Assembly: GCF_013122565.1 (NCBI RefSeq)
Contig: NZ_CP053258.1
Length of the DNA: 64,000 nt
Strand: one strand, 5' to 3'
Source of the DNA: Escherichia coli
Lineage (GTDB): Bacteria > Pseudomonadota > Gammaproteobacteria > Enterobacterales > Enterobacteriaceae
Both the position numbers and the translations under genes were made by a program. Below the pieces are notes generated by a model. That model saw only the letters and a program-made list of their open reading frames with translations, ran no database searches and was not told where the DNA came from. Positions 62,287 to 62,903 of this stretch are shown here, piece by piece. Within the stretch, counting starts at the first letter, position 1. Each line of letters opens with the position of its first letter.

Positions 62287-62903
62287 ATTTCCTCCACATC
62301 CACTGTCTAAAAATCATGATGGTTTATTCAGGATATTCATTCCTTAAATGTTTCCAGCAAATTAATAGATTAAGCGAATAAATTATCCTTAGCATTCACT
62401 TTCATATCAGCATACTCCTGCTGCACAACAACTCCACTGCATGTGTCAGAAGGTTAGCATCAAATGATAACCTGGTGAAATAGCCTGGAGACATTTAAAA
62501 TATCTACATTATGTTGTTAGAAATACTTAATGAAAAATAGAAATTCCATTCATTTAATTTATAATAAACAATATCCTTTCCCGCAGAATGCGGAATCACA
62601 CAATCAATATTTATTCAATAAAATCTGATAGTTTTAACTTGTTAACATTAAAAAACGCGCCCAGTTATCTATTATCCTGATTCGTAAAGGCTAAATAATG
62701 AATTCATTATAGTGATAATATTCATGTGATAGTTTGTTTGCGGCGAGAGATAATTCGCTTTTTATCACCGTGCTTCTCCCGATAACCAGGATTAATCAGC
62801 GCAATTTTGATCTTAACCTACCGCAAAACAACCGTGCTTCATGATACAAATAGATTCTCATTATCTGAACTATACGCAACACGTCTATGACAAAGGGCGA
62901 GTT

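Follow-up and report, generated by a model that had tools for sequence, protein, structure and literature searches.

The AT-rich DNA between yjjQ and yjjP of Escherichia coli is very probably a shared control region for two divergent transcription units, yjjQ-bglJ and yjjP-yjjB, which is silenced by H-NS and carries a proposed anaerobic, FNR-type promoter for yjjP. That H-NS and LeuO control this spacer is already known, to the point of being textbook material, and re-identifying it adds nothing new. What we add is descriptive: a pattern of conservation in three parts, and an invariant promoter element that would tie the published FNR and sigma-70 ChIP data to a sequence.

The spacer and its base composition

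We analysed a 64-kb stretch of E. coli DNA, called the window in this text. Positions 62287–62903 of the window form a 617-bp gap that reaches from the start of yjjQ on the minus strand to the start of yjjP on the plus strand (Table 1). A first-pass annotation of the window had described a divergent gap of this length, and its coordinates are exact (the yjjQ ORF ends at 62286 and the yjjP ATG lies at 62904). Comparison with the K-12 orthologues confirms the gene names and the divergent layout it had assigned: YjjQ, BglJ and YjjP share 99.6%, 100% and 98.8% amino-acid identity with their K-12 counterparts, and gene order and orientation are unchanged.

The gap measures 617 bp because we took ATG 62904 as the yjjP start, which is the start kept in all genera and also the RefSeq start. 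The list of ORFs used in this work opens yjjP at 62841 (plus strand), an in-frame ATG 21 codons upstream that overlaps the conserved extended -10 element described below. A frameshift interrupts the N-terminal extension encoded by 62841–62903 in Escherichia sp. E1V33, and other genera do not preserve the length of this extension. Measured from the yjjQ end to this upstream ATG, the gap would be 554 bp. Stratmann, Madhusudan and Schnetz are said to have described, in 2008, an intergenic region of 555 bp in which H-NS binds the AT-rich centre and LeuO binds both there and at the yjjP promoter; since the two lengths match, 62841 appears to be the start implied by the older annotation.

The K-12 counterpart of the spacer (4602859–4603476) is 618 bp long. 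DNA identity to K-12 is about 97.6% over 4.4 kb and about 96% in the spacer alone, which thus differs by about 4%. The spacer was found in 5,421 of 5,426 complete E. coli genomes, the best identity to any of them being 96.6%. It is this variable despite flanking proteins that are 99–100% identical to K-12, and the differences are concentrated in 62535–62790. No annotated feature lies inside the spacer in the RefSeq records of K-12 and VCSW7, and none lies under the spacer match among the matches listed (30 of the 5,421 E. coli records). Elsewhere in the window, the rsmC-yjjZ interval (59282–59684) holds a single tRNA-Leu(CAG) at 59598–59684, where K-12 and VCSW7 have three in tandem (leuQPV); REP-type repeats precede this tRNA gene, and the Rfam family naRNA4 is found at 59376–59458.

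Table 1. Features of the yjjQ/yjjP region in window coordinates
Feature	Position	Strand	Basis or remarks
bglJ, LuxR/GerE-type regulator, overlapping the yjjQ 3' end	60926–61603	-	ORF, K-12 orthology, Pfam GerE
yjjQ, LuxR/GerE-type regulator, gene 1 of the yjjQ-bglJ operon	61561–62286	-	ORF, K-12 orthology, Pfam GerE
yjjQ/yjjP divergent intergenic regulatory region	62287–62903	.	617 bp, GC 33.4%, K-12 orthology
yjjQ-proximal segment	62287–62534		Identity 99.4% among E. coli; 81–96% to other Escherichia species
yjjQ Shine-Dalgarno sequence GGAGG (minus strand)	62291–62295	-	Sequence reading; CCTCC kept in nearly all genera
Predicted yjjQ sigma-70 promoter CTGATA-17-GATAAT	62382–62410	-	Promoter scan
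MarA box GCATCAAATGATAAC	62457–62471	+	Identity to ETEC ChIP-seq site; conserved within Escherichia
Conserved block GACATTTAAAATATCTACATTATGTTGTTAG, candidate site for LeuO or another regulator	62490–62520	.	Kept in Escherichia, Citrobacter, Salmonella
Fast-evolving AT-rich centre, likely H-NS-bound core	62535–62790	.	Divergence, AT content, K-12 ChIP-chip regions; identity 92.6% among E. coli, ~52% to the three most distant Escherichia, 86% to the closest
yjjP-proximal segment	62791–62903		Identity 98.5% among E. coli; 85–93% to other Escherichia species
TTGATC (62807–62812) in FNR-like TTGAT-CTTA-ACCTA	62807–62820	+	8/10 consensus positions
Extended -10-like element TGATACAAA, putative yjjP core promoter	62842–62850	+	Conservation, K-12 sigma-70 peak
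yjjP, ThrE-family membrane protein, annotated putative succinate exporter	62904–63674	+	Pfam ThrE, E = 3e-69

The spacer had been described as strongly AT-rich, and it is: its GC content of 0.334, compared with a window average of 0.506, is undercut by only 162 of 63,384 segments of 617 bp (the lowest 0.3%), and within the spacer GC falls to 0.26 at 62500–62699. The only comparable low-GC island in the window lies at 8953–9569. The claim that this is the longest non-coding stretch also stands. The only larger gap without an ORF of at least 100 aa, 9184–10051, contains mokC/hokC and the sok RNA (9646–9798) and therefore retains only about 460 bp of non-coding DNA. The second AT-rich island (8422–9183 and 9646–9948, with a GC content of 0.32 at 8953–9569) is located between the gene for an OmpK-like outer-membrane protein, which a sulfatase gene adjoins, and hokC/mokC-sok next to dnaJ. 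At least 80% of positions 8000–11000 is covered in only 1,273 of the 5,426 E. coli genomes.

The A/T tracts of the spacer had been read as the signature of H-NS nucleation sites, and support for this reading is weaker. Runs of at least eight A/T bases do cluster, five of the nine falling within 62493–62655. However, neither homopolymer A/T tracts of four or more bases nor TpA steps are in excess over composition-matched shuffles of the spacer. The 10-mer TCGATAAATT, which Lang is said to have described in 2007 as a high-affinity H-NS motif, is not enriched either: at up to two mismatches it has only two matches in the spacer, about the density found window-wide, and we rejected these matches as evidence for a nucleation site. 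The DNA curvature that the same annotation had wished to see calculated gave a similarly divided answer. In a wedge model, the curvature of the entire spacer is not exceptional (79th percentile), but the spacer contains one strong predicted bend at 62800–62830, which we treat as weak evidence. Because tracts, TpA steps and the H-NS 10-mer are not enriched, the signal of the spacer is AT-richness as such, with no special tracts.

Conservation and sequence turnover

A scan for YjjQ in species-representative genomes yielded 80 loci. In nearly all of them, yjjP is divergent from yjjQ, and a bglJ-like gene follows. The two genes are directly adjacent in 52 loci, with a spacer of 387–709 bp and a GC content of 0.32–0.44; among them are loci of Escherichia, most Citrobacter, Salmonella diarizonae, Enterobacter, Leclercia, Lelliottia, Phytobacter and Trabulsiella. 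An insert of 2.6 kb separates yjjP from yjjQ in Klebsiella, Kluyvera, Raoultella, C. amalonaticus and a few others, and that of Pseudocitrobacter measures 1.8 kb. K. pneumoniae ATCC 13883 carries genes for an FAD-binding monooxygenase (394 aa, PobA-like by eye) and an AraC-family regulator (302 aa) in its insert (positions 1153–3235 of the extracted locus), and the yjjP promoter element is still found upstream of yjjP.

This distribution bears on the origin of the AT-rich DNA. The spacer and yjjQ-bglJ might be a recent, horizontally acquired island whose AT-richness is a relic of its foreign source. H-NS preferentially binds low-GC DNA of this kind, and the GC content of yjjQ and bglJ (about 0.43–0.47) is lower than that of yjjP (about 0.50–0.53) and than the window average. 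We nevertheless consider such a recent acquisition highly improbable: the divergent arrangement of yjjP and a yjjQ-bglJ-like pair spans Escherichia, Citrobacter, Salmonella diarizonae, Enterobacter, Klebsiella, Kluyvera, Leclercia, Lelliottia, Phytobacter, Trabulsiella and others, and YjjQ identity drops with phylogenetic distance. Since so many genera carry the arrangement and YjjQ identity tracks their relationships, the arrangement is ancient, and AT-richness has been maintained during sequence turnover. The locus is not missing from the majority of E. coli relatives, nor is any conflict between YjjQ/BglJ and the species tree seen.

Within the spacer, three segments differ in conservation (Table 1). 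The sequence of the centre turns over while the GC content of the whole spacer (not of the centre alone) stays at 0.32–0.34 in the Escherichia loci. This centre is likely the H-NS-bound core. The spacer may therefore serve as a clean example of regulatory DNA constrained by composition, in which the flanks are conserved, the centre turns over and the AT content is kept. One of the loci, that of Escherichia albertii NBRC 107761, has an internal deletion of 572 bp in yjjP (window positions 62942–63513 are missing; the junction is at 2839–2840 of the extracted locus). The deleted length is not a multiple of three, and this yjjP is probably a pseudogene; spacer and yjjQ are retained.

The yjjQ-proximal third contains several candidate regulatory elements. 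Two promoters were predicted for the K-12 spacer, ATGAAA-17-TTTAAT for yjjP and CTGATA-17-GATAAT for yjjQ (Shimada 2014). The window has both, at 62530–62558 on the plus strand and at 62410–62382 on the minus strand, and the -10 block of the yjjQ promoter is kept in Escherichia, Citrobacter and Salmonella. In ETEC H10407, a strong MarA ChIP-seq peak lies between yjjP and yjjQ, with the site gcatcaaatgataac (Sharma 2017), and this 15-mer is intact at 62457–62471. The expectation that the spacer would hold additional regulator sites is thus borne out by MarA and, at the other end, by FNR.

The same annotation had proposed the spacer as a place to look for small ORFs or sRNAs. That it conceals an unannotated small protein gene or small RNA seems to us extremely unlikely. 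A promoter scan did return nine promoter-like sites where 3.8 were expected, a weak terminator-like hairpin and several ORFs of 20–40 codons are present, and RNA polymerase binds the K-12 spacer in vitro. However, AT-rich DNA is expected to contain an excess of promoter-like hexamers for its composition alone. Eleven ORFs, together with the in-frame yjjP extension, were followed through eight sequences from E. coli and four from other Escherichia, and nine of the eleven candidate frames proved to be hit by a stop, a frameshift or loss of the start in E. coli or in a sister Escherichia. The minus-strand ORF at 62402–62494 and the yjjP extension remain uninterrupted in two of the three Escherichia that diverge most and carry a frameshift only in E1V33, but this ORF lacks a Shine-Dalgarno sequence and about half of its residues change. 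Within E. coli, the ORFs in the flanks owe their intact frames solely to the lack of variation in the flank DNA. A small-protein gene was rejected for all eleven ORFs and the yjjP extension on the basis of their conservation in Escherichia.

The search for structured RNA gave no better support to the suggestion. An Rfam scan of the spacer returned nothing at E ≤ 1 or at the gathering threshold, and among 100-nt windows folded on both strands none beat dinucleotide shuffles (lowest z -1.6). The terminator-like hairpin (62742–62768) was discarded, as it has only six pairs and is not kept outside E. coli. We also rejected an sRNA, there being no Rfam match, no z below -1.6 and no conservation of the centre.

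Protein binding and a probable yjjP promoter

The binding and expression data discussed here were obtained in K-12 or ETEC, and the spacer of the present strain differs from that of K-12 by about 4%. H-NS ChIP-chip defined one region under aerobic conditions, 4600344–4604525, and two under anaerobic conditions, 4600469–4601215 and 4601378–4604641 (U00096.2 coordinates; Myers 2013, Table S3). Correcting for an offset of 1,977 bp between U00096.2 and the current K-12 sequence, which we checked on leuV and leuP, the spacer corresponds to 4600882–4601499. It lies inside the H-NS regions, with the gap between the two anaerobic regions at about window positions 62407–62570. Genomic SELEX found an H-NS site and a site for RpoD holoenzyme in the spacer (Shimada 2014), and in papers from the Schnetz laboratory, which cite Stratmann et al. 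2008, yjjQ-bglJ is described as repressed by H-NS and activated by LeuO. ChIP-chip, SELEX and these reports of repression bear out, for K-12, the silencing of yjjQ-bglJ by H-NS that had been claimed. An absence of both H-NS occupancy and transcripts, which would have spoken against that claim, is not what the data contain, because the published K-12 H-NS regions cover the spacer.

At the other end of the spacer, we anchored 160 bp upstream of yjjP in 76 enterobacterial loci. The hexamer TTGATC is invariant (76/76). A strict TGnTAmAA follows it in 55 of the 76 loci, at a distance of 35 bp in 51 and of 34 bp in 4, and the other 21 have -10-like variants of the GGTAAAAGT type at the same place. 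From the -10-like element to the yjjP start codon, the distance is 40–69 bp across loci. With the -10-like hexamer at 62845–62850, transcription of yjjP would start at about 62855–62857. TTGATC and the -10-like element are probably the core promoter of yjjP, with TTGATC supplying an FNR-type half-site. This promoter differs from the one predicted for yjjP by Shimada at 62530–62558. We also considered TTGATC as a -35 hexamer and rejected this because no -10-like sequence lies 16–18 bp downstream in any genus.

Data from K-12 place FNR and RNA polymerase at the yjjP end. Only two of the three callers reported an FNR ChIP-seq peak (summit 4600895, centre 4600950), whose estimated target is yjjP and whose motif score is weak (ln p = -7.95); H-NS and BasR are the other regulators named alongside it (Myers 2013). 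The peak maps 21–76 bp from the FNR-like site at 62807–62820. A sigma-70 ChIP-seq peak at 4600950 increases from 163 aerobically to 907 anaerobically (Myers 2013); it maps to about window position 62835, within some 10–20 bp of TTGATC and the -10-like element. In an hns stpA double mutant, FNR ChIP-chip gives a signal of 0.66 instead of 0.32, and only in this mutant do yjjQ and bglJ respond to oxygen; expression of yjjP and yjjB is about twice as high under anaerobic conditions (Myers 2013). Deletion of fnr leaves yjjP expression unchanged (Myers 2013, Table S9).

The FNR-like site would be an explanation of the published FNR peak at the sequence level. Its centre, 62813.5, would be at -41.5 to -43.5 from the predicted start at 62855–62857, which is class II geometry. 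Its agreement with the FNR consensus is 9/10 in 4 loci, including E. whittamii and S. diarizonae, and 7/10 in 47 of the 76. The right half-site is poorly conserved (usually 2 of 5 matches, range 2–4). Matches of at least 8/10 are common by chance, the 64-kb window alone containing 53 matches of 8/10.

Conservation at this site extends beyond what FNR would require. The C after TTGAT is invariant (100% of the 76 loci) and the CC at +10/+11 is conserved in 87–93%, and the FNR consensus explains neither. Together with the weak right half-site, these bases favour a site for a regulator other than FNR, for which it also speaks that no fnr-dependent expression change has been published. TTGATC moreover holds the sole GATC of the spacer, as would suit a site of Dam methylation. 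It is possible, though we doubt it, that TTGATC and the downstream CC are one of these, another regulator's site or a Dam-methylated GATC, and that the FNR ChIP signal is incidental. FNR is, however, the only factor for which in vivo binding has been mapped at the yjjP end of the spacer, and both sigma-70 occupancy and yjjPB mRNA rise anaerobically. There is no convincing match to the CRP, PdhR, IHF or ArcA consensus (compared by eye), and a single GATC speaks against clustering of the SeqA type. In the same kind of comparison, by eye and with consensus sequences, we rejected CRP, PdhR, IHF, ArcA, PhoP, a DnaA box and alternative sigma factors for TTGATC, as none fits better than FNR. It also seems unlikely to us that TTGATC(T)...CC, 34–35 bp from the -10-like element, is the operator of another regulator or a methylation-sensitive FNR site that couples yjjPB to anaerobic conditions family-wide, under an H-NS brake that IS insertions can remove.

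A model for the two transcription units and its relation to known systems

Keeping to the reading of the spacer as an H-NS-silenced control region with an FNR-type yjjP promoter, we propose the following model. In the K-12 orthologue, as published, H-NS on the spacer and on the adjacent yjjQ-bglJ-fhuF DNA keeps yjjQ-bglJ and yjjP low, and LeuO counteracts H-NS. According to the published data, RNA polymerase alone can bind the spacer in vitro, and MarA and FNR bind it in vivo. Judging by comparison, the yjjQ-proximal third (62287–62534) would provide the Shine-Dalgarno sequence and promoter of yjjQ, the MarA box and the conserved block. The centre (62535–62790), unconstrained in sequence and maintained in AT content, may act through its composition as a platform for H-NS. 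The yjjP-proximal end (62791–62903) would hold a core promoter common to Enterobacteriaceae, whose -10-like element is preceded by TG in most loci. Here, TTGAT would be the strong half of a weak FNR site that raises yjjPB transcription without oxygen and that H-NS partly masks. Loss or displacement of the AT-rich centre, for example by insertion of an IS element, should then relieve the silencing of yjjP.

Such insertions are known. During evolution in the mouse gut, IS insertions in the yjjP-yjjQ spacer recur as adaptive mutations and raise yjjP expression. We found a related allele in a natural strain, E. coli ET210 (NZ_CP100987.1), which has an IS1B insertion combined with a deletion (positions 1710–3104 of the extracted locus). 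The 5' end of yjjQ is gone, and of the spacer no more than the final 104 bp remain, with TTGATC and the -10 element. IS1B is located directly upstream of the conserved yjjP promoter, an allele that resembles the adaptive IS alleles from the mouse gut. Both the gut insertions and the ET210 allele would be accounted for, we infer, by silencing of yjjP through the AT-rich centre and by a conserved core promoter that suffices for expression.

If the model is correct, one conserved element would link the FNR peak and the anaerobic sigma-70 peak, the anaerobic rise of yjjPB by a factor of about two and the IS insertions that recur in the mouse gut. The TTGATC element, if confirmed, would define the anaerobic switch-on of a putative succinate exporter in enteric bacteria.

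The closest known system is the yjjP-yjjQ region of K-12 itself (Stratmann 2008), which is orthologous, has the same flanking genes and is of nearly the same length (618 versus 617 bp) at about 96% identity; the spacer of the present strain differs from those of complete E. coli genomes mainly in the centre.

In class II FNR-activated promoters, the site TTGAT-N4-ATCAA is centred near -41.5. The putative yjjP promoter would resemble them in its perfect left half-site, in the inferred centre at -41.5 to -43.5 and in the extended -10 element, and also in a weak or absent -35, in vivo binding of FNR in K-12 and higher anaerobic expression. It differs from them in that its right half-site is weak and that no fnr-dependent expression change has been published.

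Other loci silenced by H-NS and antagonised by LeuO, such as bgl, leuO and cas, likewise have an AT-rich regulatory region and are silent under laboratory conditions. In these loci as in the yjjP-yjjQ spacer, silencing is relieved by LeuO or BglJ-RcsB, and IS insertion activates. Unlike in bgl, leuO and cas, the silenced region between yjjP and yjjQ is a divergent spacer that serves two units, one of which, yjjPB, also displays an anaerobic FNR and sigma-70 signal.
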